Shown here: positions 2,936-24,841 of the stretch, one piece after another
How the letters are laid out: the number at the start of each line of letters is the position of its first letter
Position numbering within the stretch: the stretch's first letter is position 1
Assembly: GCA_027491435.1 (NCBI GenBank)
Contig: JAOZFG010000033.1
Location: 1-25,820, forward strand
Reading direction: 5' to 3'
DNA: 25,820 nucleotides
DNA from: Thermoproteota archaeon
GTDB lineage: Archaea > Korarchaeota > Korarchaeia > Korarchaeales > Korarchaeaceae
Position numbers and translations under genes: made by a program
The notes under the pieces: model-generated
Told to the model about the DNA's origin: nothing
Databases searched by the model: none
The model's input: only the letters and a program-made list of their open reading frames with translations

Positions 2936-4440
2936 GGCACGTCCTGGTGATAAGCTTCGGCGGGCAATACGCCCACCTCATATCCAGGAGGGTAAGGGAC
3001 CTGGGCACCTACTCAGAGGTGGTGCCCTACTTTAGGGCCGGCAGGGAAAGGGTGCTAGAGGCAGACGCGGTCATACTATCTGGAGGGCCCAGCAGCGTCT
3101 ACCAGGAGGGTGCTCCCACGATACCGGAGGAGCTCCTTAAACTCAGGCCCACCCTTGGGATATGCTACGGCTTCCAGCTCATGGCCAAACTACTGGGCGG
3201 CGAGGTCAAGAGGGGCAAGGGGGAGTACGGGCCCACCAAAGTCAGGGTTCAGGACGGCCCCCTCTTCGAGGGCTGGGGAGAGGAGGAGCTGGTCTGGATG
3301 AGCCACTCTGACTACGTGAGTTCACCACCTCCCGGCTTTAGGGTGACCGCTTGGTCTGAAAACGGGTATGTAGCGGCCTTTCAACACGAATCCCTCCCTC
3401 TCTACGGGGTTCAATTCCACCCGGAGGTGTCTCACACAAGGAAGGGGAGGAAGCTTCTATCCAATTTCCTGAAGCTTTCCAAAGCTCCCAAGAACTGGTC
3501 AAACGAGGAGATGATGAAAGTTGTGATGGAGGAGACTAGGAAGCAGGTTAAGGGTTGTAGGCACGTGCTCGCAGCGGTCAGCGGGGGAGTTGACTCCACG
3601 GTCGCTGCCTTGGTGGTCAAGAGGGTCTCTGAAGTGCCCTTCACCGCCGTCCTGGTTAACCACGGTTTAATGAGGAAGGGAGAGCCTGAGCAGGCTGTGA
3701 ACATGCTTAAGAACCTCGGAATTGACGTTGTTTACGTGGACGCCTCCTCAGAATTTCTGAAGGAGCTCAAAGGGGTCAAAGACTGCGAGGAGAAGAGGAA
3801 GGTCATAGGGAGGAAGTTCATAGAGGTCTTCAGCAGGGCTGTAGAGGGCGTGGACTTCGACTGCCTGGTGCAGGGTACCCTATACCCGGACGTAATAGAG
3901 AGCGGGGCCGAGCCGGGGGCCGACAGGATAAAGTCCCACCACAACGTGGCGGGGCTCCCCGAGAACCTCCAGGCCAGGCTGGTGGAGCCTCTCAGGTTCC
4001 TCTACAAGGATGAGGTCAGGAGGCTGGGCCTCGCCCTGGGGCTGCCCAGGGAGGTGGTGATGAGACACCCCTTCCCCGGGCCTGGTCTGGCGGTCAGGAT
4101 AATGGGCGAAGTTACCCCCGAGAAGCTGGAGGTGGTGAGGGAGGCCTCCCATGTGGTGGAGGAAGAGCTGAAGAGGGCTGGAGTTTACGAGGATGTCTGG
4201 CAGGCCTTCGCCGCCGTGGGAGACGACAAGTGGGTGGGGGTGAAGGGTGACGCGAGGGCCGAGGGCTACTTGGTCACCGTCAGAATAGTGGTGAGCGAGG
4301 ACGCCATGACCGCTGACTGGTACAGGGCAGATCACGAACTGCTAGACAGGATGGCCAAGAGGATAAGCTCAATGGACAAAGTGACTATGGTCACCTACGC
4401 CGTGACTACTAAGCCTCCCAGCACGATAGAGCCCTGCTAG
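2932..4440 (+). CDS. guaA: GMP synthase (glutamine-hydrolysing), fused GATase and ATP-pyrophosphatase domains
   Basis: FGGQYAHLI, ILSGGPSS, LGICYG (catalytic Cys), QFHPEV, SGGVDS PP-loop, QGTLYPDVIES, IKSHHNV, HPFPGPGL, KPPSTIE. Start moved to ATG 2932 (ATGA overlap) from the GTG 2911 in the ORF track. Confidence 0.97.
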   Translation: MRHVLVISFGGQYAHLISRRVRDLGTYSEVVPYFRAGRERVLEADAVILSGGPSSVYQEGAPTIPEELLKLRPTLGICYGFQLMAKLLGGEVKRGKGEYGPTKVRVQDGPLFEGWGEEELVWMSHSDYVSSPPPGFRVTAWSENGYVAAFQHESLPLYGVQFHPEVSHTRKGRKLLSNFLKLSKAPKNWSNEEMMKVVMEETRKQVKGCRHVLAAVSGGVDSTVAALVVKRVSEVPFTAVLVNHGLMRKGEPEQAVNMLKNLGIDVVYVDASSEFLKELKGVKDCEEKRKVIGRKFIEVFSRAVEGVDFDCLVQGTLYPDVIESGAEPGADRIKSHHNVAGLPENLQARLVEPLRFLYKDEVRRLGLALGLPREVVMRHPFPGPGLAVRIMGEVTPEKLEVVREASHVVEEELKRAGVYEDVWQAFAAVGDDKWVGVKGDARAEGYLVTVRIVVSEDAMTADWYRADHELLDRMAKRISSMDKVTMVTYAVTTKPPSTIEPC

Positions 4441-4859
4441 TACTCAACGACTTTTTTCAACTTCTTTGAGGTGTTGACCCACCTCTTCACCTCCTTAAGG
4501 GAGGGGAGCCTCCTCACCAACTTTCTCATCCTATTAACCTCCACTAGCCTCTTATGAAGGTTTTCTGGATTTCTCTGAGCGAGCTCAGCCACAGTATCAA
4601 CGCCCGCCGCCTCAAGGAGGTCGCTGTACTCCTCCCCAATTCCCTTAACCCTGAACAGGTCGGCCTTGTTCACCCACCTCAGGACGACCGACTTGGACAC
4701 CCCAACGGCCTTGGCTATCTCCTCCCTTCCCTTCCTGGTGGCTCCCCTCTTCAGGAGGTCGCCCACCGTGAAGATGCCGATCTCGTGGAGCTTCCTGGAG
4801 TGCTTCTCCCCTATGCCCTCTATGGACTCCACCGGTCTGTTCAACGTGGTCCTTGTCAT
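4437..4859 (-). CDS. DUF4332-like helix-hairpin-helix protein
   Basis: Two HhH motifs (IEGIGEK, VKGIGEEYSDLLEAAGVDTVAELAQRNPENL) and WVNKADLFR. ATG 4859 is preceded by a GGTGA RBS, with a TTTATAAA box near 4893-4900. Confidence 0.85.
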   Translation of the reverse strand: MTRTTLNRPVESIEGIGEKHSRKLHEIGIFTVGDLLKRGATRKGREEIAKAVGVSKSVVLRWVNKADLFRVKGIGEEYSDLLEAAGVDTVAELAQRNPENLHKRLVEVNRMRKLVRRLPSLKEVKRWVNTSKKLKKVVEY

Positions 4860-5002
4860 TTCAATCACCGGCGGGACGATCCTGGCTTCTTTTTTATAAA
4901 AGCTTTTCTTTTAGAGGCTTCTTTTAGTTACGCTGATTGCATTAACTGTTTGGGCTCCGTACCAAATTAGATGGGCTTTACTCATTTCGTAAAGGCATAT
5001 TC

Positions 5003-5021
5003 TTCATTTAATTTAAATGAA
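5003..5021. promoter_or_regulatory. Perfect 9-1-9 palindrome, candidate operator
   Basis: TTCATTTAA-T-TTAAATGAA in the AT-rich divergent intergenic region. Confidence 0.35.
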
Positions 5022-5307
5022 ATTCCGATATAAAGGTTAAATTTTATTTTTATTTAGGTGCTTCCAAGATTATGCTAACTAAAAACGCCGATATGCCGTC
5101 TGACGTAACTCCTCATGGGATTAGGGGCAGGGCAGCAGGGGGCCTCCCAGACCCCTTCATCAAGCTCCTTTGGGTATGCGTCCATCTTCCAGAGATTCAC
5201 GGACTCCAACTTCAAAACGCGGCTATGCCTCCAGGACCTCAAGCTAACTAATCGCATCACATCATTGCATCAAAATAGATGTTATTTTTACGGGTGTCAA
5301 TCTTAAA

Positions 5308-5326
5308 TTGTTGTTATTAACATCAA
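5308..5326. promoter_or_regulatory. Near-perfect 9-1-9 palindrome upstream of the YwiC-like gene, candidate operator
   Basis: TTGTTGTTA-T-TAACATCAA (8 of 9 pairs match), ~70 nt before ATG 5399. Confidence 0.4.
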
Positions 5327-5398
5327 TAACTGATAAATTAAATTGAATTAATGGTCAACGTTTATTATTTACTATTTCAGCAAATATAGGGTGCGTTA

Positions 5399-6043
5399 AT
5401 GTCAGGAATCCCTAAGCAAAGTGGCCTAATATCTGTGTGGTTCGCAACACTGGTGTACGCTTTGGGAAGTGTCGGCGTAAGGCCGGCGCTCATAGCTTCC
5501 CTTCTGGTCCTGATATCTGCTGAACCTGTGCAGAGGGCAATAGCAAGGAGGGACCTTGTCGGCTTAATGTGGGCTGTCCCACCCGTGTTCGCTTACCTCC
5601 TTCTAATTCCGCTTCAACGGGTATTCCTCCTTGTACCTGCATTCTTAGCCCTGCTGGCCGCCATGTTCCCCGCGACCAGAGGGGGGAGGGAGGTGACCCA
5701 CTGGTCAACTGTGCTGGGCAGCTCGATGGTCGCCCTTCACAGCTCAGCCTACCTGCTCAGCGTCGAGCCTGTTAACTGGATGACCCTCTTTCCAGTGGTT
5801 TACACCGCTACAGCAACTTCTCAGGCAGCTCTAAGGGTGCTTGGGGAGAATAAGCGCATTTCTCTGCTGTTTAAGGCCCTGTTGACGTTGCAAACTCTAG
5901 TAGGGGTTTACATAGGGGTTAAGGGCCTCGTTCTATTAGCTGACGTCCTTAGCAGGGTACTCCAACCCAGGCTAAGCGTCAAGGCCCACGGCATCCTGGA
6001 GTTCCTCAGGATGACCCTGGTCTGCTCGATCCTGAGCCTTTAA
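5399..6043 (+). CDS. Multi-pass membrane protein, YwiC-like
   Basis: About 7-8 hydrophobic segments. N-terminal IPKQSGLISVW resembles the YwiC PKQHGAW motif, and the C-terminal KAHGILE resembles the family's KxxGxxE end. Confidence 0.6.
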   Translation: MSGIPKQSGLISVWFATLVYALGSVGVRPALIASLLVLISAEPVQRAIARRDLVGLMWAVPPVFAYLLLIPLQRVFLLVPAFLALLAAMFPATRGGREVTHWSTVLGSSMVALHSSAYLLSVEPVNWMTLFPVVYTATATSQAALRVLGENKRISLLFKALLTLQTLVGVYIGVKGLVLLADVLSRVLQPRLSVKAHGILEFLRMTLVCSILSL

Positions 6044-6067: not shown

Positions 6068-7702
6068 ATGATCGCCGACCTCTTACTTCACGGCGAGTAC
6101 CTTAACGTATACACGGGCGAGGTGTTAGAGGGCCCCGTGGCCATCAAAGGCGACAGGATACTCTGCGTCGGCGAGAGGGTCCAGGCTAGGGAAGAGGTTC
6201 ACGTGGAGCTCATACTCCCCGGATTTAAGGACGGGCACGTACACATAGAGAGCAGCAAGCTGGCGCCTCAGGAGTTCGCAAGGGCCGTCGTCCCCCACGG
6301 CACCACCTCGGTCTTCGCGGATCCACACGAGATAGTTAACGTGGCCGGGGTTGAGGGCTTCAAGTACATGTTGGAAAGTTCAAGGGAAGTCCCCCTCAGA
6401 GTACACCTAATGGTTCCCTCCTGCGTCCCAGCCTCTCCCTTTGAGGAGTCCCCCCATGAAATCACCCCTGAGGACGTTAAAACGTTGCTGGAGAGTTCCT
6501 ATGGTCTGGGAGAGGTCATGAACTTCCCCGGAGTCATAGAAGGTGATCTTAACCTCATTGAAGGGATAAGGGCCAGCAGGGAGAGGCGCCTGCCCGTGGA
6601 CGGGCACGCACCCAAGCTGAAGGGCCTTGACCTCTGCCTCTACCTCTTCAGGGGGGTTGAGTCGGATCACGAGTCCACCTCGGCTGAAGAGGCCCTGGAG
6701 AAGCTTAGGAAGGGAATGTACGTCATGGTCAGGGAGGGGAGCGCCTCCAGGGACATGGGTATAGTAAAAGGGATCCCTCACACCAGGAGGGTCCTCTTGG
6801 TGACCGACGACAGGTCTGCCTCAAGCCTCCTTAAGGACGGGCACGTGGACCACCTCCTGAGGAGGGCCGTGGAGGAGGGCATGGACCCAGTTAAGGCAGT
6901 TCAAGCGGTGACGATTAACGTGGCCGAGAGGTTCAGGCTCTACGAGCTTGACGGGATAGCCCCAGGCAGGCTGGCTGACCTGACCGTGGTTAAAGACCTC
7001 AGGTCCTTCCAGGTCTCAAGGGTTTACGTGGGAGGAAAGCTAGTGGCCAAGGACGGCAAACCTTTGTTCAAGGCGTCGAAGCCCAGGAGGATAGGGGTGA
7101 TGAAGGTCCCACCTCTCAAGCCTGAGGACTTCCTTATAAGGGCCGAGGGGGAGGTAGTGAGGGCCAGGGTAATAGGCCTTACAGGCTCCCTGATAACCAA
7201 GGAGTTGGTGGAGGAGCTGCCAGTCAGGGAAGGGTTCGTTAGAGGAGAGCACCACCTCGCTGTGGTGGAGAGACATGGGAGAACTGGTCATGTAGGCAAG
7301 GGGTTCGTCAGGGGCTTCTCCTTCACCGGAGCAATAGCTAGCACAGTGGCCCACGATAGCCACAACTTGGTGGTCGCTGGCTCTAACGAGAAGGACATGC
7401 TCTTGGCCGTAGAGGAGCTGGCAAGGGTTGGAGGTGGCCAGACAGTGGTGAAGGACGGCGAGGTATTGGTTACCCTCCCCCTGCCTGTGGGGGGCATAAT
7501 GTCCGACCTGAGCGCCGAGGAGGTGGCGGCCAGAGAGGAGGAGCTAATAAGGGCTTACAGGTCAGTTGGAGGGATTAGGGAGGATCCCTTCATGGAGCTC
7601 TCCTTCCTAGCCCTTTCAGTCATACCTGAGCTCAAACTAACGCCTAAGGGGCTGGTCAAGGTGACTGAATCTGGGATAAGCCTAGTCAGTCCGCTTCTCT
7701 GA
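6068..7702 (+). CDS. ade: Adenine deaminase
   Basis: DGHVHIESS, HGTTSVFADPHEI, PSCVPA, LGEVMNFPGV, DGHAP, SDHES, REGS, VTDD, VVERHG, STVAHDSHN, LALSVIPELKLT. Confidence 0.97.
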   Translation: MIADLLLHGEYLNVYTGEVLEGPVAIKGDRILCVGERVQAREEVHVELILPGFKDGHVHIESSKLAPQEFARAVVPHGTTSVFADPHEIVNVAGVEGFKYMLESSREVPLRVHLMVPSCVPASPFEESPHEITPEDVKTLLESSYGLGEVMNFPGVIEGDLNLIEGIRASRERRLPVDGHAPKLKGLDLCLYLFRGVESDHESTSAEEALEKLRKGMYVMVREGSASRDMGIVKGIPHTRRVLLVTDDRSASSLLKDGHVDHLLRRAVEEGMDPVKAVQAVTINVAERFRLYELDGIAPGRLADLTVVKDLRSFQVSRVYVGGKLVAKDGKPLFKASKPRRIGVMKVPPLKPEDFLIRAEGEVVRARVIGLTGSLITKELVEELPVREGFVRGEHHLAVVERHGRTGHVGKGFVRGFSFTGAIASTVAHDSHNLVVAGSNEKDMLLAVEELARVGGGQTVVKDGEVLVTLPLPVGGIMSDLSAEEVAAREEELIRAYRSVGGIREDPFMELSFLALSVIPELKLTPKGLVKVTESGISLVSPLL

Positions 7703-8717
7703 ATGCGCGGGCCAGCACAGGGTCTGGGATCCTGTAAGCCCCCTCCACCTTCTCCAGGAAGCCCATGTCGACCAGCCTCCTCAAAACCTTAGCTAAGCTC
7801 TTGTCTGGAATCCTGCCGAGCCTGGCCTCCACCCCTCTCTTCACCTCCCCCCACCTAGCCTTACCAAGCAGGGAGACTATCCTCATCACCTCCCCGTACC
7901 TCTCCCCCTGAACCGCGTGGTTGAACTCGGATAGCGCCAGCCTGGAGGCCATCCTGACCACCTCCATAACCAACTTCTCGCTTAACTCCCCCCTCATAAC
8001 TGAGGCGTAGCCGAAGTAAGAGAGCCAGCCAATTATCCCATCGAAGGAGTCCACCGCTAGCTCTAACAACCTTTCTTCAGGGCTTATCGAGTGCTGTGAA
8101 AAACCTTCCCTCAAGAACTCCAGGGAGAGCTCCCTGGTGAGGCGAGGAACCCTGACCTCAGCGTAAGCCCTGCCGAACAGCGGGGCTTCGGGGTCCTCTA
8201 ACCTTAGAAACTTGTGAAGCAAACCTATTTGAGATCCCGAAACGACGAGCCTCACGTTCAAGTGATCGTATATGTAGGCTAGGAGCTTATCAAAACGATG
8301 TCTCGACCTCCTAAGCTCCTGAGCCTCGTCCAGCACGAGGACCTTGCCTTCAATGGTTTTAAGGGCCTCCAATAGAGTTTCGTAGGAGGGCCTCACCCTT
8401 ACCCCCAGCCCAGCTAGCCTGACTTCCTCCACTCGCATCAAGGCGGCCCTAACCTTTCCCCTTGCCTGGGCTATCAGGAGCTTCAGGAAGTCCTTTACGG
8501 ATATCATGCCAGCTGGAAGGAGCCTACAGTCCAGGAAGACGTAATCCTCGCCCATCTCATTTAAACCGGTCAGTATTAGGGAGGTCTTCCCGTACCTCCT
8601 TAGGCCTGTCACCAAGGTGAGCTTGCTGACCCTGACGTACCTCTGGAACTCCCTTAGGGCTTCGTCCATGTCGAAGAAGTCCTCCCTCCTAGTCTTGGGC
8701 TCTTGAGTGAAGTACAT
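7686..8717 (-). CDS. Archaeal ATPase (ATPase_2 / MJ-type STAND-like) with C-terminal winged helix
   Basis: F..EPK..REDFFD start, Walker A GLRRYGKTS, Walker B LVLDEAQ, SGS, PLFGRAY, DGIIGWL, and a C-terminal wHTH ending YRIPDPV. Confidence 0.92.
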   Translation of the reverse strand: MYFTQEPKTRREDFFDMDEALREFQRYVRVSKLTLVTGLRRYGKTSLILTGLNEMGEDYVFLDCRLLPAGMISVKDFLKLLIAQARGKVRAALMRVEEVRLAGLGVRVRPSYETLLEALKTIEGKVLVLDEAQELRRSRHRFDKLLAYIYDHLNVRLVVSGSQIGLLHKFLRLEDPEAPLFGRAYAEVRVPRLTRELSLEFLREGFSQHSISPEERLLELAVDSFDGIIGWLSYFGYASVMRGELSEKLVMEVVRMASRLALSEFNHAVQGERYGEVMRIVSLLGKARWGEVKRGVEARLGRIPDKSLAKVLRRLVDMGFLEKVEGAYRIPDPVLARAFREAD

Positions 8718-9904: not shown

Positions 9905-9977
9905 ACCGACACCTCTATTACATCTGAAAGCCGCGAATCATATTTTAATTGATGCTTAGGGGGTTAAAGTGAGGCCC

Positions 9978-12900
9978 ATGAGGGGTAAATTGCTGTTGCT
10001 CCTACTACTTGTGATCTCCTCAACTACTTTGCTCGTTACCTCCTGGCCCAAGTTCAGGTACGACGTTCAGAGGACGGGCTACGTGATGGGATCCGGGGAC
10101 ATGCCTGAAGAGGATACGCAGATGCCTAAAACAAAGTGGACCGCTTCATCGCCTACAGGCTCCGGTTTTGCGTCTCAACCGCTGATAGCCGACTGGGGAA
10201 CTTTCACAGCAGTTATAGCCCTGGATGAGAACACTGTTCCTGTAGTTATAAATGGATCCGACGGGAGCGTCAAGCAAAAGCTGATAGCGGCCGGGATAAA
10301 CTCTTACACGGGGGCCCACCCTTCTCTTGGGGATTACAACTCCGATGGGAAGTTGGACGTGTACGCGGCGTCCTACACTAAAGCTTACGTGTTCGACCAC
10401 GACGGCGGCCTGTCTTGGCAAAGCTCTAACTTAGAGGGCAGCGTGAACTCCCCTCCTTTAGTGGACGATTTAGACGGCGATGGGGCTGACGAAATGGTTT
10501 TGGTTACTTACAAAGCTATGGCGTATAGGTTTGATCCACCAGCTGCTGGCGACACGTGGAACGTGAACCTCACCTTTTTAGCTTTGAGCGCAGGGGTCCC
10601 CGAGTCGGAGGCCCCAAAGGCGTTTAAGGCCCCGGTGGCCGGAGCGGCTTACGGGGGCACATACTACCTGCTCTTCCTCTCCTACAACGGGTACCTTCTC
10701 GCCTTAGATCAGAACGGGAATTACCTGTGGCACGCCAAGTTCGGCTCCAGCAACACGGAAATCTCGCCCCTGGTGATCCCCTCCCAGAACAAAGTGGTGG
10801 TAGCCAACTCCGCCGGAGAGGTCGCTATTCTCAGGCTGAGCGATGGAGCCACCCTGGACGAGAAAAGCCTCTCCACCTCCGGCGTGGGGTCAAACATAGG
10901 GTACGCTGAAGTGTCGGGAAGGCCTGTAGCGATAATGGGAGGGGTTGATGGGAAGGTGTTCAAGCTCTTCCTGGACGACTACACCTTCACTTCCATAAGC
11001 ACCAATGGGACGTTCGCCTCAGGTCCTGTCATAGCTGATTTCGACGACGACGGCCATCTAGAGGCGGTCTTCGGTTGTTCTGACGGTAGGCTCATGGCCG
11101 TAGACCTCATCTCCAATAAGGTTGACTGGTTCGTGGACTTAGGGAGTACCACCCCCCTACCAGCGGCCGGAGACGTGGACGGCGACGGCCTGCTTGAACT
11201 GGTAGTCAAGGTGGACGGCGTAGTCAAGGCCTTAGAGGGCTCAGTCTTCAGGCCTTCCAACACGGGAGCCGGCTCAAGGTTATCGGTCATAATAATATCT
11301 CCAACAGACGGCCAGTACCTTAACAAGAGCAACGTCACCATAGCTTACAAGGTGTTCTACACTGGAAGCGAGCTGGTCAACGTCAGGGTGAGGGTTGGAA
11401 AGGGGGGTAACTACAAGCTGTTGAAACACGCTGTAGAGACGGCTAACGTGTTGAGGAGCGTCGTATGGGACGCAACCAACGCTGATGACGGTCCCTACGA
11501 GGTGAGCGTCCTCGCCTCCCTGACCACCTCGGAGGAGTCTTACAAGGTTGAGGGGAAGTCCCTGTTCTACCTGGATAGGGAGCCCCCCAAGGTGGAGGTT
11601 ATTTCCCCTGAGGAAGGTGAAGAAGTTCCGGTAGGCCAGCCCATAAACCTGACCCTGAACGTGACGGATGAGGTTTCTGAGGTCTGCAGGATCACGATAA
11701 AGATGAGGGGCGAGGGAAGGGACTGGGAGCCAGTGACCAAGAGCATGGAAGTTTACGGGGTCGTTCAATTCAACCTCTCCACAAAACAGTTCTACCCCGG
11801 TCAACAGGTAGACTTGGCCATGTGGCTTTACGACCTAGCCGGAAACATGGTAAAGAACGAGACCTGGGTCAAGATAGTCCTGCCTCCGGAGGAGGTAAAC
11901 GTCACCAAAAACAAGACAGAGGAGAAGGTTACAGTAAGGTTCTCATTACCGAACCCCGAGCTTAGGGTGATATCCCCTAGGCCTGGGGAGGGGTCAGACG
12001 ACTTCTTCGAGATAAAGGCCAGCATTAGGAACAACGCCTTCGAGCCGGCCAGGCTTGTGGTGATGTACACTAGAGTCGAGAAGGAGAGGTGGAAGGTCGT
12101 GCTCAACAAGACCACCGACTGGTTCGACCGGGTTGAGTACAGGTGGGACGTCAGGGACCTGTCCCCGGGCTACTACAAGCTCAAGTTCGTACTTCAGGGA
12201 GCAGGAGGTAAAGAGGCTAAAAAGGCCATAAAAGTGGTGGTTAAGCCTGATCTGGCTAAAATAGATGAAAGTCCTCCTTCTTTAAACATCGTCAGTCCAG
12301 TGAACGGGAGCTCGTACTCGAAGGAGGTGCCAGTGATCTGGGAAGCGAGCGACGACCTGGATCAGTCCCTGGACTTTAGGGTATTCGTCAGGTTCCCCAA
12401 CGGCACGATTAAGGAGGTGGCTGAACTTCAAGGGGTGGATAGGTACTTTCTCAAGGCCGAGGGGTACACAGAAGACCTGTACTTCGTGATAGTGGAGGCT
12501 GAAGATGACGCCGGCAACGCCGTGAACAGGACGGCCAGCTTCTTCATAGACAAGACGCCTCCCAAAGTCCAGCTAACAGTTAAACCGCAGACGGCTAAGC
12601 TAGGAGAGGAAATAACTCTGGATGCTAGCAAGAGCTCGGACGACAGGAAGATAGCTTACGTCCTTTGGGATCTGGACGGGGACGGGAAGTTCGAGGCGAA
12701 CACCACGGAACTTAAGTACTCATTTAAGGCGATGAAGCAGGGAAACTTCCAAGCGGTAGTCCAGGTGTTTGACGAGGCGGGCAACTCGGACAAGGCGGCC
12801 ATAAAGTACACGGTGGTGAAGCCTTCCGTTCAACCCCAGCCTAAGCCAGTGCCACCTCCGACTAGACCTGCAGCGGGCGTACAGGCTCCTTCAGCTGAGG

Positions 12901-13019
12901 GAGTTCCAGTGACGGCGGCTATGGGAGCTATCCTAGTGCTCATAATAGCCGTGATAACGGGGCACCTGCTCTACTCCTACAGGGAGAAGGTTAAGGCCTT
13001 GATGAAGAAGCCCTCCTGA
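9978..13019 (+). CDS. Large membrane-anchored surface glycoprotein: signal peptide, FG-GAP/PQQ-like beta-propeller, tandem Ig-like domains, PKD domain, Pro-rich linker, C-terminal TM
   Basis: MRGKLLLLLLL signal; WPKFRYDVQRTG; DxDxDG motifs (GDYNSDGKLD, DDLDGDGADE, ADFDDDGHLE, GDVDGDGLLE); repeated DxxPPxV.IISP...DxAGN units; LDASKSSDD..WDLDGDG PKD; TM AMGAILVLIIAVITG. ATG 9978 preferred over GTG 9969. Confidence 0.88.
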   Translation: MRGKLLLLLLLVISSTTLLVTSWPKFRYDVQRTGYVMGSGDMPEEDTQMPKTKWTASSPTGSGFASQPLIADWGTFTAVIALDENTVPVVINGSDGSVKQKLIAAGINSYTGAHPSLGDYNSDGKLDVYAASYTKAYVFDHDGGLSWQSSNLEGSVNSPPLVDDLDGDGADEMVLVTYKAMAYRFDPPAAGDTWNVNLTFLALSAGVPESEAPKAFKAPVAGAAYGGTYYLLFLSYNGYLLALDQNGNYLWHAKFGSSNTEISPLVIPSQNKVVVANSAGEVAILRLSDGATLDEKSLSTSGVGSNIGYAEVSGRPVAIMGGVDGKVFKLFLDDYTFTSISTNGTFASGPVIADFDDDGHLEAVFGCSDGRLMAVDLISNKVDWFVDLGSTTPLPAAGDVDGDGLLELVVKVDGVVKALEGSVFRPSNTGAGSRLSVIIISPTDGQYLNKSNVTIAYKVFYTGSELVNVRVRVGKGGNYKLLKHAVETANVLRSVVWDATNADDGPYEVSVLASLTTSEESYKVEGKSLFYLDREPPKVEVISPEEGEEVPVGQPINLTLNVTDEVSEVCRITIKMRGEGRDWEPVTKSMEVYGVVQFNLSTKQFYPGQQVDLAMWLYDLAGNMVKNETWVKIVLPPEEVNVTKNKTEEKVTVRFSLPNPELRVISPRPGEGSDDFFEIKASIRNNAFEPARLVVMYTRVEKERWKVVLNKTTDWFDRVEYRWDVRDLSPGYYKLKFVLQGAGGKEAKKAIKVVVKPDLAKIDESPPSLNIVSPVNGSSYSKEVPVIWEASDDLDQSLDFRVFVRFPNGTIKEVAELQGVDRYFLKAEGYTEDLYFVIVEAEDDAGNAVNRTASFFIDKTPPKVQLTVKPQTAKLGEEITLDASKSSDDRKIAYVLWDLDGDGKFEANTTELKYSFKAMKQGNFQAVVQVFDEAGNSDKAAIKYTVVKPSVQPQPKPVPPPTRPAAGVQAPSAEGVPVTAAMGAILVLIIAVITGHLLYSYREKVKALMKKPS

Positions 13020-14859
13020 GGAGGAGGGCTACCAAGGCCACGAGCAGTACGGCCATTAAGGCGAGCGGAAGCAAGTTTATCCCTCCCCTTCCTCTCTCTT
13101 CGCCTCTTTCGACCCCTCTCTCAACGACAGTTTCCCTCTCCACCTTGGTGTGGGTGATCGTGACCCTAACGGTTTGAACCTTACCCTTAACCTCCAACCT
13201 AGCCGTGACCCAATCCGACCAGGTTCCCTCGTCGTCCATAACCCTAAAGGAGATCACGTGGACTCCAGGCCTGAGGTAAGCCTTAACCTCTTGACTTGAC
13301 CCCAGGAACCCGTCCAAGTTAGAGCGCCACTCGTACCTGACTATTCGACCGCCATCAGGGTCCGTCCCGTGGCCCTTCAGGGTTACCTCCTCCCCCTCTT
13401 CAGCGGTTCCGGGGACCTCGTCGATGAAGGCCTTTGGCCTCTCGTTAATCACTTGAACCGTCAGGTAGGCCCAATCGCTTTCGAGCCCCTCCTCATCCCT
13501 GACCCTAACCTTGGCTGTGTAGTTCCCGGGAGCCCTGTAAGAGTGCCTCACCGCAGGGAAGGCCGTCCACCCATAGGTGACGCCGTCACCGAAGTCGTAG
13601 TAGTACTCCAACTCGTCCCCGTCCGGGTCGTAGCTTTTGCTGGCGTCCAGGTATACCTTCTGACCCACCCTGGCCTTGGTGAGGTTTGAGGTGATCGAAG
13701 CTACAGGAGGCCTGTTCTCAGGGGATATAACGACCTTAAAGGGGTCGCTCCAATCGCTCTCAAGCCCGTCGTTGTCCCTGACCTTCACCTTGACGAAGTA
13801 GACGCCAGGCTTGACGTAAACGTGGGAGACCACGCTCTCCCTGGTCCATCCGTAAGTGTTTCCATCCCCGAAGTCGTAGTAGTACTCCACGACCCTGCCG
13901 TCCGGGTCGTAGCTCTTGCTGGCGTCCAGGTATACCTTCTTACCTACCCTCCCGTTCTCCCCCTTTACTATGGCCACGGGCTTCACAGGTACCTCTTCAA
14001 CCCTTATGAAGCAGCTGTTCTCTGAGTACTCAGCGTCATTAGACCAGGCCTTTACCACGAAACGCCTGTATCCGCTTCCCTTAAGCGAGCCAGTGAAGGA
14101 ATACTCCACGTTAGCTCTGGCGTTGAAGCCTGCTATGAGCCTGGTGGTCCCGTTCTCGAACTCCTCCCAGACCTCCACCCTAGCGTCCTTGTTCACTCTC
14201 ACCCTAACTTCGATAGGCTCTCCTGTCCTGTAAGTAGATCCGCATCCCCTGTCAACCCAGACCTCAGCTAGGAAGCTGGAAGGAACTATCTTGTAAACTT
14301 CAACGTCGTCGAAGTAAGAGGCCCCGTTGGACTTCAAGGCGAGGCCTTCTAGGGTGTAGGGCTCAGGCGTCATCTGAAGCCCCACGTATTCACCGTCCAC
14401 GTAGCACCAATACCTGCCCGAGGGGAGGTCTAGGACCACCTCTACCTGGTACCACCTAGCAGCAGAGTAGGAGAAGCTCCCCTTCCCCCCGCAGGTGGCC
14501 GTTCCCGAGTCGAACTTAAGGTAGGCGATCCACTTTACAGTACCATCGTTTTTAGCAAATCCCAGCAGGACTGGACCGCTGGAGGGGTAAACCCTGGCCA
14601 CAACTCCCAGCTTGTCAGCGTCCTCTAGGCCGATCCTCCTGGCGACCGTGGAGGAATCCACTTTAAACGACTTAGGCGGGGAGTAGGCTGTGGAATCGCT
14701 CACCTCGGCAGTTGAGCCTTCCCAGAGCTCCCAACCTGGGGGCGTAACCCCCAAGTCGAAGGAGTCAAAGCTCTCGAAGAAGATGGTCCTCCTGAAACTT
14801 CCTGATAGGCCGAGGGGGGTTAACAGGAGTAATAGTAATAGGCAGACTCTGGCCTTCAT
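12991..14859 (-). CDS. Membrane-anchored surface protein: signal peptide, ConA/lectin-like domain, DUF4384-like Ig domain, three PKD domains, C-terminal TM
   Basis: MKARVCLLLLLLL signal; WYQVEVVLD..YVDG..YFDDVEV (lectin-like); VWVDRGCGSTYRTGE; two LDASKSYDPDG..YYYDFGDG repeats and a third GTDPDGG..YEWRSNLDG unit; TM LLPLALMAVLLVALVALLLRR. TATA at 14882-14890. Overlaps the convergent gene by 29 bp. Confidence 0.88.
   Translation of the reverse strand: MKARVCLLLLLLLTPLGLSGSFRRTIFFESFDSFDLGVTPPGWELWEGSTAEVSDSTAYSPPKSFKVDSSTVARRIGLEDADKLGVVARVYPSSGPVLLGFAKNDGTVKWIAYLKFDSGTATCGGKGSFSYSAARWYQVEVVLDLPSGRYWCYVDGEYVGLQMTPEPYTLEGLALKSNGASYFDDVEVYKIVPSSFLAEVWVDRGCGSTYRTGEPIEVRVRVNKDARVEVWEEFENGTTRLIAGFNARANVEYSFTGSLKGSGYRRFVVKAWSNDAEYSENSCFIRVEEVPVKPVAIVKGENGRVGKKVYLDASKSYDPDGRVVEYYYDFGDGNTYGWTRESVVSHVYVKPGVYFVKVKVRDNDGLESDWSDPFKVVISPENRPPVASITSNLTKARVGQKVYLDASKSYDPDGDELEYYYDFGDGVTYGWTAFPAVRHSYRAPGNYTAKVRVRDEEGLESDWAYLTVQVINERPKAFIDEVPGTAEEGEEVTLKGHGTDPDGGRIVRYEWRSNLDGFLGSSQEVKAYLRPGVHVISFRVMDDEGTWSDWVTARLEVKGKVQTVRVTITHTKVERETVVERGVERGEERGRGGINLLPLALMAVLLVALVALLLRRASSSRP
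13589..13940. repeat. Duplicated PKD-coding segments with 279-bp offset
   Basis: 13589-13610 is identical to 13868-13889 (22/22), and 13619-13661 matches 13898-13940 at 42/43. Confidence 0.85.
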
Positions 14860-21661: not shown

Positions 21662-22411
21662 ATGCCTAGAGTGATCCTAATAACCGGGGGTACCTCGGGA
21701 ATAGGATTTGAAGCAGCCCTCCTCTTCAGGAAAGAAGGGGACAAGGTCTTCGTGATAGGCAGGTCTGAGGAGAAGGGGAGAAGCGCGGAGAAGCGGGGGC
21801 TCACGTATATTAGAGGAGACGTGAGCGACCCCAGCATAACGCAAATAGTTAGGGAGGTGGGGGAGAGGGAAGGCAGGATCGACGTCCTGGTAAACGCAGC
21901 TGGAGTCTACAGGGGAGGCAACCTGGAGTCCTTCAGCCTGGAGGAGTGGAACGAGGTCATTGGGGTGAACCTGACCGGCACCTTCCTGGTCACGAAGGCG
22001 GCCCTGCCCTACATGGGGGAGGGCTCCGTCATAATAAACGTGAGCTCCACGGCGGGGGTGAGCCCCTACCCCAGGGGCACGGCCTACTGCGCCTCCAAGG
22101 CTGGTGTGATAGCCTTCTCAAGGGCTTTGGCCTTGGAGTTAGCTCCAAGAGGTATAAGGGTCAACGTAGTGGCCCCTGGCCTTACAGACACGCCTATGCT
22201 GAGGGGAATAGCTGGCAGCGAGGAGAGGATGAGGGAGTTCGCTCAACTGGTGCCCCTCAAGAGGATAGCCTCCCCTGAAGAGGTGGCCAGGCTAATACAC
22301 TTCCTAGCCTCCGAGGGGGCCAGCTATATAACTGGAGCCGTCTTCGTAATTGACGGCGGTATGACCGCCGGAAGGACGACGACGGCCGGTTCAATAGGGG
22401 CGAGAGAATGA
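21662..22411 (+). CDS. Classical SDR oxidoreductase (FabG-like)
   Basis: ITGGTSGIG, DVLVNAAG, VNLTG, NVSS, YCASK, GIRVNVVAPG, IDGG. Start placed at ATG 21662 (MPRVILITGG) rather than TTG 21587. Confidence 0.95.
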   Translation: MPRVILITGGTSGIGFEAALLFRKEGDKVFVIGRSEEKGRSAEKRGLTYIRGDVSDPSITQIVREVGEREGRIDVLVNAAGVYRGGNLESFSLEEWNEVIGVNLTGTFLVTKAALPYMGEGSVIINVSSTAGVSPYPRGTAYCASKAGVIAFSRALALELAPRGIRVNVVAPGLTDTPMLRGIAGSEERMREFAQLVPLKRIASPEEVARLIHFLASEGASYITGAVFVIDGGMTAGRTTTAGSIGARE

Positions 22412-23112
22412 CGTTCTATCCCTTACCCTTGAGCAAGCTGTACAAGGTGCTAGTCAGGTTGGAGGAGCCGGACCAGAGGTCCGTGGCCAAGCTCCTTGGG
22501 GTGAGCAGGAGGACCGCTGACAAGTACGTGAAGACAGCTTCATGGCTGAAGGAGAAGGTGGGAAGGCCCTCAACCCTTGATAGCCTCCAGGAGTCCCTCA
22601 AAGCGGTGATGTTCAACGACTACAAGGTCAAGGAGGCGGTGAGCCTGCTCTCCCTCAAAATGGTGCCTCTAACCCCTCAAAGCCTCAGGGAGGCGCTGAA
22701 GGCCCTGGGAGTTAAGGTCTCCCTGACGGAGGCTAAGGCCTTCATCGAGTGGCTGAAGCAGATGGACGTCATCAGGGAGAGAAAGGTCCCCTTGATAACT
22801 GAGGACATGGAGTCAAGAGTTCTGGAGCTGGTCAGGGAGAGGGGTAGCCTCACCTACGCCACCCTGGTTAAGAGGTACGGGGAGGGGGTGAGGGACGTCC
22901 TGTTCAAGCTCTGGTCCCAGGGCAAGGTGAGGGTGCCCGTACTGGACAGGTACAAGGAGGAGCTTAAGGGGGCCAAAGACTTGGACAGGTTACCGGCCAT
23001 GAAGGGCAGGATATTCTCCACGTGGCACGACAGGATCTCAGGGGAGACTTACTCGCAGCTGGTGATACCAGGAAGGGCGAAAGTTGAAGCTAGGTGGGAC
23101 TTTGTTTCCTGA
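22408..23112 (+). CDS. Uncharacterised protein with three tandem HTH/winged-helix modules
   Basis: QRSVAKLLGVSRRTADKYVK; LTPQSLREAL..VSLTEAKAFIEWLKQMDVI; RVLELVRERGSLTYATL..VLFKLWSQGKVRV. ATGA overlap with the SDR gene. Confidence 0.8.
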   Translation: MTFYPLPLSKLYKVLVRLEEPDQRSVAKLLGVSRRTADKYVKTASWLKEKVGRPSTLDSLQESLKAVMFNDYKVKEAVSLLSLKMVPLTPQSLREALKALGVKVSLTEAKAFIEWLKQMDVIRERKVPLITEDMESRVLELVRERGSLTYATLVKRYGEGVRDVLFKLWSQGKVRVPVLDRYKEELKGAKDLDRLPAMKGRIFSTWHDRISGETYSQLVIPGRAKVEARWDFVS

Positions 23113-24841
23113 GGAGGAGGTAAGGGAGCTCTCTCACAAGTACTCGAAGAAGCTGGCCCCCTCCCAGATAAGGGAGATCCTCAACTACTGGATGGATAGG
23201 AGGCCCATGAACCTCCCACCCGAGATGCTAAGGGAGGTCTTCGTGGAGCCAGAATTCCTCTTCAAGAAGGCCGAAGACATAATCAACTACTTGAGGGAGA
23301 GGGACTGGAGGGGGGCCATAGTCTCAGTAGTGGGCGAGTACGGGTCAGGAAAGACTCAGCTGGGCCTCATCCTGAAGAGGATGCTCAGGGGAGAGAGAGA
23401 CGTGAGGTCCTACTTCAAGACCTTGGACTCCTTCAGGGACGTCAGGACAATACTCCTGGAGGACGTGACCCTAGACGACGTGGAGCCTCTGGTGCTCATA
23501 GTCGATGAGGTGGACCAGTTGCTCAGCGAGCTCTACAGGGGTAGGAGGGAGAGAATAGAGGAGATGGCTGACATAGTGAGATTCATTACGGAGGGCAGCG
23601 CCTCCCCTCCTTTGGGCTCCGTCGTCCTGCTAATGTCCACCAGGGCCAAGGGGGAGCTCGCCTCCGACAGGTCCCTGGCTAACAGGCTAATAGCTAGGGC
23701 CAGGGAGTTCAGGCTAACTCTAACTGATGAGGAAAGGGAGAAGGCGGCTTTAGAGGCCGTCAAAAAGGTGATGTCCCTCTACATGGCCCTTGAGTCGGCC
23801 TTCGACGTGTACAAGTACTTCGACCTGCTTTACGAGTTCCTGACATCCAGGGCGAGAACCCTAGCTTTGACTTTGGAGATAGGCGGCATAGTCAAGGAGG
23901 TGACCCTAACCCTTAAGGAGATACTGGACAGGATCGACAAGGGGGCCAAGGTTCCTGAGGGGACGGAGCTAGGCAGAACTTTGGAGGAAGCCCTCAAAAA
24001 GTACTTGAAGGAGAGGGCCAGCGCCGTCCCCTTCGAGGTCAGGGTGGGGGAGAGGGTGAAGCACTACCTGGCCAAGTTCTCGGAGGAGAGGGTAAGGGTG
24101 GAGCAGGCCATCTCGGACGGCCAGTACGTGGTGCACACCTACGACCCATCGAGGGGCTTCGTGGGCTCCCCCGTCCTTAGGGTGCTGGTGGAGGTTAAGA
24201 CCGGGACGAGTTGGTTGAGCGATTCTAACGCTAAGAGGCAGATTCAATCCTTCCTGAACGAGGCGCCATTGCTTTTGTTCTGGCTCTCGGACCATCAGAA
24301 CGAGATCCCTCCCTTTGAAGGCCCACTAAGGGTTATAGTCCAGGACCCAAGCCCCTTTAAGGTGTCCATGATACTTAAAGGGGGACGAGAGCTCCTGGAC
24401 TCTTGGGTGGACCTTAAGAGGGACGTAGAGGAGAACGTGGCCCTCCTAACTTTACCCAGGACGGCTAGCAATGACAAGGGAAAGGAAGGGGTTGCCGACC
24501 TCGACGTGGTGGCCTCAACGATAGTCTCGGCTGTCCTGATAGAGCTGAAGAAGGCCAGGTCCTACAAGAAGGTGTCTACGCTTCACGCAGTCATACTAAA
24601 CGCCATGAGGTACGCTTACGAGCAGATGGGCTTAACCCCTCCTCAGCCGAGCTCTACGCTCATCGAATCCTTGTTGAGAGTCTTCGTCAGGGAAGGGCTG
24701 GGCAGGTTCTCGAAAACCGGGAAGACCGTGCAAATAACTAAGGAGAGCAGGTTGAGGATAATGGAGCTAGAGTCTAACCCTGGAAGGAGGAAGAGGGTCG
24801 AGGAGGAGTTAAGGGAGCTCCTGAAGAAGGTGATGGGCTAG
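23102..24841 (+). CDS. P-loop (AAA+-like) ATPase fused to a putative PD-(D/E)xK nuclease domain and a C-terminal winged helix
   Basis: Walker A VVGEYGSGKT (GEYGSGKT at 23333-23356), Walker B LIVDEVD, VVLLMS strand, LANRL Arg-finger-like; then LEEALKKYL...AISDG...VLVEVKTG...RQI; C-terminal helix-turn-helix and wing (LLRVFVREGLGRFSKTGKTVQIT). TTG 23102 follows an AGGTGG RBS (alternative TTG 23084). Confidence 0.82.
   Translation: MFPEEEVRELSHKYSKKLAPSQIREILNYWMDRRPMNLPPEMLREVFVEPEFLFKKAEDIINYLRERDWRGAIVSVVGEYGSGKTQLGLILKRMLRGERDVRSYFKTLDSFRDVRTILLEDVTLDDVEPLVLIVDEVDQLLSELYRGRRERIEEMADIVRFITEGSASPPLGSVVLLMSTRAKGELASDRSLANRLIARAREFRLTLTDEEREKAALEAVKKVMSLYMALESAFDVYKYFDLLYEFLTSRARTLALTLEIGGIVKEVTLTLKEILDRIDKGAKVPEGTELGRTLEEALKKYLKERASAVPFEVRVGERVKHYLAKFSEERVRVEQAISDGQYVVHTYDPSRGFVGSPVLRVLVEVKTGTSWLSDSNAKRQIQSFLNEAPLLLFWLSDHQNEIPPFEGPLRVIVQDPSPFKVSMILKGGRELLDSWVDLKRDVEENVALLTLPRTASNDKGKEGVADLDVVASTIVSAVLIELKKARSYKKVSTLHAVILNAMRYAYEQMGLTPPQPSSTLIESLLRVFVREGLGRFSKTGKTVQITKESRLRIMELESNPGRRKRVEEELRELLKKVMG

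Follow-up and report, generated by a model that had tools for sequence, protein, structure and literature searches.

Genes and features at the locus

The stretch of DNA analysed here (the window; 25,820 nucleotides) is one entire contig, JAOZFG010000033.1, of a 1.64 Mb, 99% complete genome (G000) from a Thermoproteota archaeon of the family Korarchaeaceae (GCA_027491435.1). We describe two overlapping genes on its forward strand. Gene 1 encodes a protein with several helix-turn-helix (HTH) modules, and gene 2 encodes a fusion of a AAA+ ATPase, a predicted PD-(D/E)xK nuclease-like domain and a winged HTH (wHTH) domain. An earlier note on this DNA had proposed the pair as a candidate undescribed system, namely a minimal restriction or antiviral module. 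The features of the pair, with domains taken from AlphaFold 2 (AF2) models, are the following.

22408..23112, + strand: gene 1, multi-HTH DNA-binding partner (234 residues, ATG start, open reading frame (ORF) list)
22408..22776, + strand: gene 1 residues 1-123, HTH domain of two lobes and seven helices in a weakly BrxA-like arrangement
22801..23109, + strand: gene 1 residues 132-234, winged helix that contains an inserted segment and has a three-strand beta tail
23084..24841, + strand: gene 2, AAA+ / PD-(D/E)xK-like / wHTH fusion (585 residues, TTG start, ORF list)
23108..23299, + strand: gene 2 residues 9-72, N-terminal helical domain (helices 9-23, 26-38, 46-52 and 56-72)
23309..23722, + strand: gene 2 residues 76-213 (about), AAA+ alpha/beta core
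23333-23356, + strand: Walker A motif GEYGSGKT, gene 2 residues 84-91
About 23492-23509, + strand: Walker B motif LIVDEVD, gene 2 residues 138-144
23684-23686, + strand: candidate arginine finger R201, in NRL (gene 2 residues 200-202)
23726..23932, + strand: gene 2 residues 215-283, helical bundle of the AAA+ lid (helices 215-234, 240-261 and 266-283)
23960..24373, + strand: gene 2 residues 293-430, predicted PD-(D/E)xK (restriction-endonuclease-like) domain (AF2 topology, conservation)
24383..24838, + strand: gene 2 residues 434-585, C-terminal winged helix preceded by a helical linker (AF2 secondary structure)

The two genes stand on the same strand exactly where the earlier note had placed them, in full agreement with the ORF list. 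The database copy of the gene 2 protein has 579 residues, which fits a TTG start at 23102 with AGGTGGG ahead of it. With the start of gene 2 at either 23084 or 23102, the two genes overlap by 11-29 nt. The ATG of gene 1 forms an ATGA overlap with the stop codon of the gene upstream, the second of two genes for short-chain dehydrogenases/reductases (SDRs).

Architecture of the gene 2 protein

The AF2 model of the gene 2 protein had a predicted local distance difference test score (pLDDT) of 89 and a predicted template modelling score (pTM) of 0.86. It contained a AAA+ core, a lid and a C-terminal winged helix, together with both Walker motifs and the arginine finger candidate. Foldseek returned 239 PDB matches at E ≤ 0.001, with ORC4, ORC1, Cdc6, Lon and RuvB as leaders. 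When the model was aligned to 48,161 chains by VIA-align, Sulfolobus solfataricus Cdc6/Orc1 came out on top (14.8; root-mean-square deviation 3.2, 215 residues aligned), followed by Aeropyrum pernix ORC2 (14.2), NSF-D2 (13.4), Hda (13.2) and TnsC (13.1), and further down by Avs5 (12.9), BrxC (12.4) and MuB (12.3). Orc1/Cdc6 ranks above TnsC, yet for some rows the two lie inside the tie range of the method. The lid of gene 2 falls within the ORC/Cdc6 structural alignments. Pyrobaculum aerophilum Cdc6 (1fnn_B) aligned over residues 29-578 of the model (309 residues) and ORC2 (1w5s_A) over residues 28-557, both reaching the winged helix. Since the Cdc6 alignment spans the segment between lid and winged helix, the gene 2 protein appears to be an Orc/Cdc6-type module of core, lid and winged helix into which a further domain has been inserted between the last two.

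Family libraries added little to this picture. Searches of Pfam, NCBIfam and PADLOC with both proteins and their sub-domains gave nothing above cut-off, an outcome that the earlier note had named, for PADLOC, as supporting novelty, and Pfam runs on 38 family members yielded generic AAA-type matches only. Searched against the PDB as sequence profiles, the two proteins and the nuclease domain retrieved only P-loop-level RadA matches, SidC noise and one designed protein. The N-terminal helical domain matched no family; its residues W36, R39, R40 and P41 are invariant in 14 homologues (the window protein and its 13 closest relatives, 36-76% identity), as are E537, G540, S543, K547, R568 and R569 in the C-terminal region.

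The nuclease-like insert

The insert carries the motifs LEEAL (E301), ISDG (D345), VEVKTG (E370 and K372) and RQI (Q386). Its topology was read from the order in which DSSP elements follow one another in the AF2 model and not from a three-dimensional superposition: a helix at 293-310 containing E301, strands at 314-321, 324-333 and 346-354, with D345 just before or at the start of the last of these, a strand at 359-373 bearing E370 and K372, a helix at 381-393 with Q386, and strands at 396-401 and 415-420. This order of elements gives the alpha-beta-beta-beta-alpha-beta core, in which the second core strand begins with the aspartate and the third bears ExK, at a pLDDT of about 90 over residues 290-400. 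In language-model look-ups with the window's domain and with a 43%-identical homologue, all named nearest clusters were PD-(D/E)xK families (PDDEXK_3, Mrr_cat_2, Mrr_cat, MunI, NERD and PDDEXK_11; scores 0.77-0.83), which we regard as leads only. Judged from the model, the insert is quite likely to adopt the PD-(D/E)xK restriction-endonuclease fold.

Several results count against this assignment. Shuffled proteins reach language-model scores of 0.77-0.83 a third of the time. Pfam gave no match for gene 2 residues 286-465 at E ≤ 10, and the PDB sequence profile of the nuclease domain retrieved no nuclease, its sole match being a protein designed de novo (2lvb_A, E 0.58). By hhalign, the domain was paired with 17 ATPase_2+DUF234 sequences at probabilities of 1.2-4.7% and with 26 Hjc sequences at 3.6%, all of them insignificant. 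No solved nuclease matched at domain level, and the fold searches with the whole model were filled by AAA+ proteins. The insignificant hhalign alignments still paired equivalent elements, namely the helix with G..E and the ExK strand with the helix and strand that follow.

Residue conservation within the gene 2 family

The gene 2 family is tiny: 57 proteins were found when 1.84 billion cluster representatives were searched with a profile at E ≤ 0.001. Residues were counted in a 57-row alignment of sequences of at least 500 residues, made up of the 14 homologues and 43 profile matches, with fragments and the 1184-residue P0061 excluded. In a second alignment of 38 rows (A5, with its 'invariant D339'), near-duplicates and degenerate rows had been dropped, and the 57-row counts are therefore the unbiased ones. 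A search for longer, fused forms at 1209-3450 residues, with 1025-1208 residues outside its range, found one 2043-residue protein with a mere P-loop match of 12% coverage.

All motifs quoted in the earlier note were found in the translation, with their key residues invariant in the 14 homologues: G84, G87, G89, K90, D141, E142, R201, E301, D345, E370, K372 and Q386. Across the 57 members, the ATPase residues K90 and D141 are present throughout (57/57 each) and E142 in 43. Among the nuclease residues, whose conservation the earlier note had named as a check, E301 is kept in 47/57, D345 in 49/57, E370 in 47/57 (with aspartate in three more), K372 in 29/57 (with threonine in 18 more) and Q386 in 39/57. 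In a 17-member clade with E-x-T in place of E-x-K, a lysine three residues before the conserved glutamine is retained in at least 90% of the sequences. Migration of the catalytic lysine is known in the PD-(D/E)xK superfamily, and the helix lysine of the E-x-T clade looks like such a case, compensating for K372.

The E/D/E triad is kept in 45 of the 57 members. Of the 12 that lack it, 11 are also without the Walker B glutamate, and this joint loss argues that the ATPase and nuclease activities work together. The rows that have lost both the Walker B glutamate and the triad (P0029, P0034, P0041, P0043, P0046-48, P0052, P0053, P0055 and P0057) belong to an Asgard-type subclade of about 555-590 residues. 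On the evidence of its sequences this subclade is likely an inactivated derivative, and it retains gene 1 upstream at L114, L115, L117, L118 and L122.

These counts bear on the possibility that the insert is catalytically silent, serving as a structural or DNA-binding element, and that the pair acts solely as an ATP-dependent DNA-binding switch or regulator. Relatives described in PMC10853773 carry an inactive restriction endonuclease (REase) domain at exactly the same position, according to the sections on these systems, and such a reading would also account for the 12 members without the triad and for the fact that no active nuclease family was matched significantly by sequence or profile. 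Against it stand the invariance of the five nuclease residues in the window protein and its closest relatives, the persistence of the acidic triad in most of the family and the compensating lysine of the E-x-T clade. Such invariance and compensation are the pattern expected of an active site and not of a scaffold, and we consider a silent insert quite improbable.

Two further loci (L049 and L050) gave weak matches of 24-25% to the C-terminal part of P0022, within a 458-residue ORF.

Gene 1 encodes a putative DNA-recognition subunit

The AF2 model of the gene 1 protein had a pLDDT of 87.7 and a pTM of 0.53, the latter being consistent with two domains joined by a flexible linker at residues 125-131. 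No Foldseek match was obtained at E ≤ 0.001. Among the best 50 VIA-align rows, BrxA, which has two HTHs, was the only match to the N-terminal domain (residues 1-123). BrxA is all-helical, contains two HTH motifs and binds double-stranded DNA, with SspB as its next structural relative, as the sections on its structure in PMC9240713 state. PMC12839542 portrays BrxA, in the passages concerned, as a recognition component of bi- or tripartite HTH/wHTH build, with variants that carry a third wHTH. The beta tail of the C-terminal domain is highly conserved (DLDRLP...GRIF.TWQDRISGE...LVIP.RA...ARW). No catalytic domain was found in gene 1, either in the family libraries or in the AF2 model.

The earlier suggestion of three HTH- or wHTH-like modules thus held in the model, where two form the lobes of the N-terminal domain and the third is the winged helix. 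Gene 1 would accordingly encode a non-catalytic DNA-recognition subunit with two N-terminal HTH lobes in a BrxA/SspB-type arrangement and a C-terminal winged helix. Prediction of a complex between the gene 2 and gene 1 proteins scored 0.00 in both runs, a value that counts neither for nor against their association.

Pairing and distribution of the two genes

A gene 1 homologue lies directly upstream of gene 2 in all 15 Korarchaeia loci, the window included, where the contig includes gene 2 with its 5' end as well as DNA upstream of it; fragments at contig ends or a paralogue make up the remaining six loci. The pairing extends to distant relatives. Upstream of a metagenome homologue of gene 2 (about 19% identity), a 244-residue ORF fits the gene 1 profile (hhalign probability 99.4, E 4e-21), and upstream of a Promethearchaeota homologue a 246-residue ORF matches it at an hhalign probability of 68; the two upstream ORFs are themselves linked by BLASTP (E 3e-12). 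A hidden Markov model of gene 1 found nine full-length neighbours of Asgard gene 2 homologues and one cut by a contig end. Co-occurrence of the two genes, another check put forward in the earlier note, was thus borne out both within Korarchaeia and at distant Asgard and metagenome loci. At two Asgard loci with 650-670-residue relatives, which have a different, ATPase_2-like ATPase, upstream DNA is present and no gene 1 was found in it.

Within the phylum, gene 2 is present in 18 of 43 genomes, comprising G000, 16 of the 20 other species of its genus and one of five genomes in the sister genus; it was found in none of the remaining 18. The four genus genomes without it are 70, 96, 70 and 83% complete. 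In Korarchaeum, gene 2 is therefore near-universal, and it is single-copy. Of 301 Asgard genomes sampled, 15 had a gene 2 match at E ≤ 1e-12, two of them with two copies.

One Korarchaeum genome contains a second gene-2-like copy of 27% identity (L021, G017:C33:1-3856; 809-2500, - strand). An in-frame TAG divides this copy into ORFs of 181 and 373 residues; it adjoins the ATPase gene of an ATP-binding cassette transporter and has no gene 1 upstream. Its N-terminal piece shows a weak BrxC_BrxD match (E 1.5e-3).

Inheritance and neighbourhoods

Inheritance was compared among nine genomes of the genus Korarchaeum, with gene 1 available from eight of them (28 of the 36 pairs; a contig end truncates it in G028). 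In their pairwise identities, gene 1 and gene 2 correlated with each other (Spearman 0.84, 28 pairs), and the same three clades appeared in the comparisons of gene 1, gene 2 and GMP synthase; as genome pairs are not independent, p-values mean little here. Between G000 and the other members of the genus, identities were 60-64% for GMP synthase (GuaA), 47-48% for PmbA/TldD, 44-70% for adenine deaminase, 42-53% for gene 1 and 38-42% for gene 2. By these comparisons, the pair appears to be inherited vertically in Korarchaeum and to behave like a core gene pair. Its flanks vary by clade and include a major facilitator superfamily (MFS) transporter, an ArsR-type regulator, a radical-SAM enzyme and an SDR.

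For the Asgard archaea, eight loci with extended flanks were inspected (L047, L123-L128 and the metagenome locus L048). At one, a convergent gene for a 570-residue HerA (DUF87) follows immediately after the pair. At another (L124, G311:C132:2000-10931), a 778-residue ATPase_2-like relative, the nuclease region of which fits the family profile, has a NurA gene downstream and, on its other side, an opposite-strand MCM gene with inteins (1373 residues). One locus adjoins an SMC_N/AAA_23 ATPase, and at the remaining ones the neighbours are amidohydrolases or large proteins that match no Pfam family.

A role of the pair in defence has to be weighed against a number of these and related results. Pairwise identities track those of GMP synthase, as those of a housekeeping gene would (Spearman 0.79 for gene 2 and 0.88 for gene 1), and gene 1 does not evolve faster than gene 2, unlike the recognition subunits published as 'rapidly evolving'. 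Pfam scans of ORFs of at least 100 residues found no defence gene in the window, and none was seen among the transporters, SDRs and metabolic genes of the Korarchaeum flanks examined. No terminal, inverted or other meaningful repeats were found around the pair, and viral contigs, plasmids and phages gave no match. PADLOC returned just P-loop-level SspC matches (E 1.8e-4 over 36 residues). In Korarchaeum the pair, for which the earlier note had inferred a restriction or antiviral role, resembles vertical core genes and has no defence neighbours; the patchy spread in Asgard archaea, on the other hand, is as expected of an accessory conflict module.

Taken as a whole, the Korarchaeum data could also be explained by a lineage-specific housekeeping factor of replication, repair or recombination, in which an ORC-like loader or clamp, joined by a nuclease specific for DNA structures and by an accessory subunit that binds DNA, would process intermediates of chromosomal DNA. 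Single-copy presence in most species of the genus, with several of the non-carriers being incomplete genomes, would agree with this, as would the clades and correlations shared with GMP synthase, a gene 2 identity to G000 that comes near that of PmbA/TldD, and the ordinary surroundings. HerA at one Asgard locus, and NurA and MCM beside the 778-residue relative, fit as well. A repair niche could even be open, since the C-terminal domain of NucS/EndoMS was not found over the Pfam cut-off in four Korarchaeum genomes (G000, G014, G020 and G031; one sub-threshold match in G000). The distribution beyond the genus tells a different story: 0/18 phylum genomes outside the two genera, 1/5 in the sister genus, 15/301 in Asgard archaea and 57 representatives in 1.84 billion. 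Hjc, found in 40 of the 43 phylum genomes, illustrates how a true core gene is distributed. Moreover, the same four genomes each contain, elsewhere, Hjc and two canonical Orc1/Cdc6 genes of about 400 residues with a Cdc6_C match, one gene 2 subclade has lost both catalytic sites, and HerA or NurA occurs at just two of the eight Asgard loci and is likewise a hallmark of the predicted defence class. A housekeeping factor is rather unlikely in our view.

The pair might, in addition, descend from a transposon of the IS21, Tn7 or Mu type, with gene 1 as an IstA-like HTH protein without its DDE domain and gene 2 as an IstB/TnsC/MuB-like AAA+ protein fused to a TnsA-like nuclease. There is no DDE domain and there are no flanking inverted terminal repeats, the genes are single-copy and vertically inherited, and matches to transposase-related families lie far below cut-off. 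In the structural comparisons Orc1/Cdc6 came above TnsC, though tied with it for some rows. We hold such a domesticated remnant to be improbable; it concerns origin more than present function and would be compatible with the explanation preferred below. An active insertion sequence (IS) of the IS21 type was rejected, as DDE domain and inverted repeats are missing and each genome has one copy.

Other features of the window

The remaining ORFs covered by the Pfam scan encode AlaX-like, PmbA/TldD, GMP synthase, adenine deaminase, ZnuA, VIT1 and CAAX protease proteins, an ATPase_2 protein, surface proteins and the two SDRs. Neither tRNA genes nor Rfam families were detected in the window. The ATPase_2 protein (7686-8717, - strand; 343 residues; PF01637, E 7e-11) ends in an MCM_C-type winged helix and represents another Orc/STAND-like archaeal ATPase on the contig, unrelated in sequence to gene 2. 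Two large convergent genes at 9969-14859 (1016 and 622 residues) encode surface proteins with beta-propeller, FG-GAP, PKD and Big domains.

Two stretches stand out by base composition. Directly 3' of gene 2 and near the contig end, 24842-25425 is poor in ORFs and has a GC content of about 46%, compared with about 56% elsewhere; neither a tRNA nor an Rfam family was found in it, and the MFS gene that trails the pair in several Korarchaeum genomes has left no remnant there. A second low-GC patch (4500-6000, 47-48%) holds a gene for a DUF4332/HhH protein (4437-4868, - strand) and a 214-residue ORF at 5399-6043 without a Pfam match.

Proposed function

The integrity of both genes, the order of their domains, the conservation of key residues, the strict pairing and the coupled loss of catalytic residues in one subclade are observed. 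They are best explained, with a probability of roughly 55%, by an operon of two genes, complete in itself, that would encode a DNA nuclease of the Orc/Cdc6-REase-wHTH type under the control of ATP. DNA as the substrate, formation of a complex, gating by ATP and the biological role are what we infer beyond these observations. The gene 1 partner and the C-terminal winged helix of gene 2 would place the ATPase on DNA. Binding of ATP might then lead to the assembly of neighbouring subunits through the conserved R201, and this assembly could position or license the built-in nuclease domain to cut DNA. The joint loss of ATPase and nuclease residues, with the partner kept even there, fits a machine whose parts work together.

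As for the biological role, restriction of foreign DNA without a methylase, either type-IV-like or structure-sensing, is the most likely one. The family is uncommon and unevenly spread among Asgard archaea, and it fits a class of designs for which action against mobile elements has been predicted. The two lineages give different indications. Presence in 5% of the Asgard genomes, occasional duplicates and sporadic HerA, NurA or SMC neighbours point, together with the published context, to defence. In Korarchaeum, near-universal single copies, vertical descent and ordinary neighbours and rate point to a fixed, possibly domesticated function. An antiviral role of the pair is plausible.

A bolder proposal would join both indications. 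An ORC-nuclease without methylase, in which the AAA+ switch gates its own nuclease and a BrxA-like triple-HTH protein aims it, may have been taken from the mobile defence pool and fixed in Korarchaeum for maintenance of chromosomal DNA or genome surveillance. We regard this as rather unlikely. If true, the pair would be the first active-nuclease prototype of the Orc/Cdc6-REase class and would mark a route from a defence module to a housekeeping gene in archaea near the eukaryotic stem. Fixation and vertical descent in Korarchaeum, set against the patchy Asgard spread, in any case make the pair a case for studying the domestication of conflict modules.

Comparison with known systems

The logic of the pair is similar to that of McrBC-type type IV restriction, in which a DNA-binding module, a AAA+ NTPase and a PD-(D/E)xK nuclease act without a cognate methylase. 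The AAA+ clade and the division of the domains over two proteins are different, and none of our searches returned a match to McrBC.

Archaeal proteins of the ATPase_2 (PF01637) and DUF234 (PF03008) type, which we take to be COG1672-like, also combine a P-loop ATPase with a wHTH and a PD-(D/E)xK-type domain, and their motifs G..FE / D / E.KW resemble G..E / D / E.K..W of gene 2. They differ from gene 2 in domain order (ATPase, wHTH, terminal nuclease-like domain), in being multi-copy and in having no partner gene. The gene 2 family gave no PF03008 match, and PF01637 matched below threshold in 4 of 38 members. Three ATPase_2+DUF234 proteins of 450-480 residues are encoded on other contigs of G000 (C7, C26 and C40), and the family is multi-copy and patchy, occurring in 24 of the 43 phylum genomes.

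Compared with canonical Orc1/Cdc6 proteins (2qby, 1w5s and 1fnn), gene 2 has a nuclease insert of about 140 residues, an extra N-terminal helical domain and an obligatory partner gene. As it gave no Pfam match to Cdc6_C (PF09079) at E ≤ 1, and as two canonical copies exist elsewhere in the genome, a canonical replication initiator was rejected.

With BREX (BrxA and BrxC) and Ssp (SspB and SspC) the pair shares the combination of a multi-HTH DNA-binding protein and an ATPase of the ORC/Cdc6 clade, and the N-terminal domain of gene 1 is weakly BrxA-like. BrxC is an ORC/Cdc6 ATPase of 1200-1300 residues that has a coiled coil and lacks a nuclease, as described in the parts of PMC12839542 devoted to it, and is thus twice as long as gene 2. 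Korarchaeota, Asgard archaea or two-gene systems were not mentioned in the main text of PMC12839542, as far as a search for these terms goes. The earlier note had stated that PglX, PglZ, PAPS reductase and helicase are absent from the window, which proved correct for the Pfam-scanned ORFs. No genes for a methyltransferase, PglZ, BrxB, BrxL or phosphorothioate (PT) modification were seen with the pair in the window or the related flanks examined. Neither Pfam nor PADLOC matched BrxA (DUF1819) at E ≤ 1, and BrxC_BrxD was sub-threshold in 7 of 38 members. Membership in BREX or Ssp was rejected, as modification genes are missing from the window and related loci and no family model matched. A degenerate or minimal derivative of either system, that is BrxA with a BrxC-like protein or SspB with SspC after loss of the modification genes, is highly improbable: PglZ, PglX, BrxB, BrxL and a PAPS-reductase-like gene are absent from the window and the related flanks examined, the BrxA models do not match, and gene 2 has 585 residues and a predicted nuclease where BrxC has neither this length nor such a domain.

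The closest counterpart is a class of systems built around an Orc/Cdc6 ATPase with an REase-fold domain. The concept of effectors that combine Orc/Cdc6 with an REase is said to go back to Zhang et al. 2016. A full-text literature search, including named sections, found no description of the gene 2 family, members of which may be listed in the supplementary tables of PMC10853773 and PMC12839542. The in-silico study PMC10853773 (NAR 2024) describes, in its sections on this class, an Orc/CDC6 ATPase with an REase inserted between the AAA+ core and a C-terminal wHTH, in mobile neighbourhoods of the 'HerA/FtsK capture' kind and related ones. In the systems covered there the inserted REase is inactive and is accompanied by a separate active REase and a HerA/FtsK pump; a subset has a fast-evolving protein carrying 2-4 wHTHs that is related to DndG, SspB and FokI. 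All are inferred there to act against selfish elements. The term 'undescribed' in the earlier note thus still applies to the family, which is unannotated, and no longer to the design, which comparative genomics had already laid out.

The likeness of the pair to this class rests on the published description and not on sequence comparison. Common to both, by that account, is the domain order of Orc/Cdc6 AAA+, REase-fold insert and C-terminal wHTH; a separate multi-(w)HTH operon partner, possibly of the DndG/SspB/FokI/BrxA type, may be a further likeness. In contrast to the systems set out in those sections, the insert of the present family keeps its catalytic residues (invariant in Korarchaeia; triad in 45/57), no second nuclease or HerA/FtsK gene was found in the window or at the Korarchaeia loci examined (HerA or NurA neighbours being limited to the two Asgard loci), and the Korarchaeum pair is, by its sequences, vertically inherited where the published neighbourhoods are mobile. 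According to genome-based prediction, systems with Orc/Cdc6-REase and multi-wHTH proteins make up a large branch that is directed against mobile elements and related to BREX, Ssp and Dnd. Within this class the pair is the simplest version seen, with two genes and one predicted active nuclease. As stability is common among proteins of thermophiles and the models were predicted with confidence, it is a good candidate for a first biochemical or structural test of how an initiator-type AAA+ module controls a nuclease.

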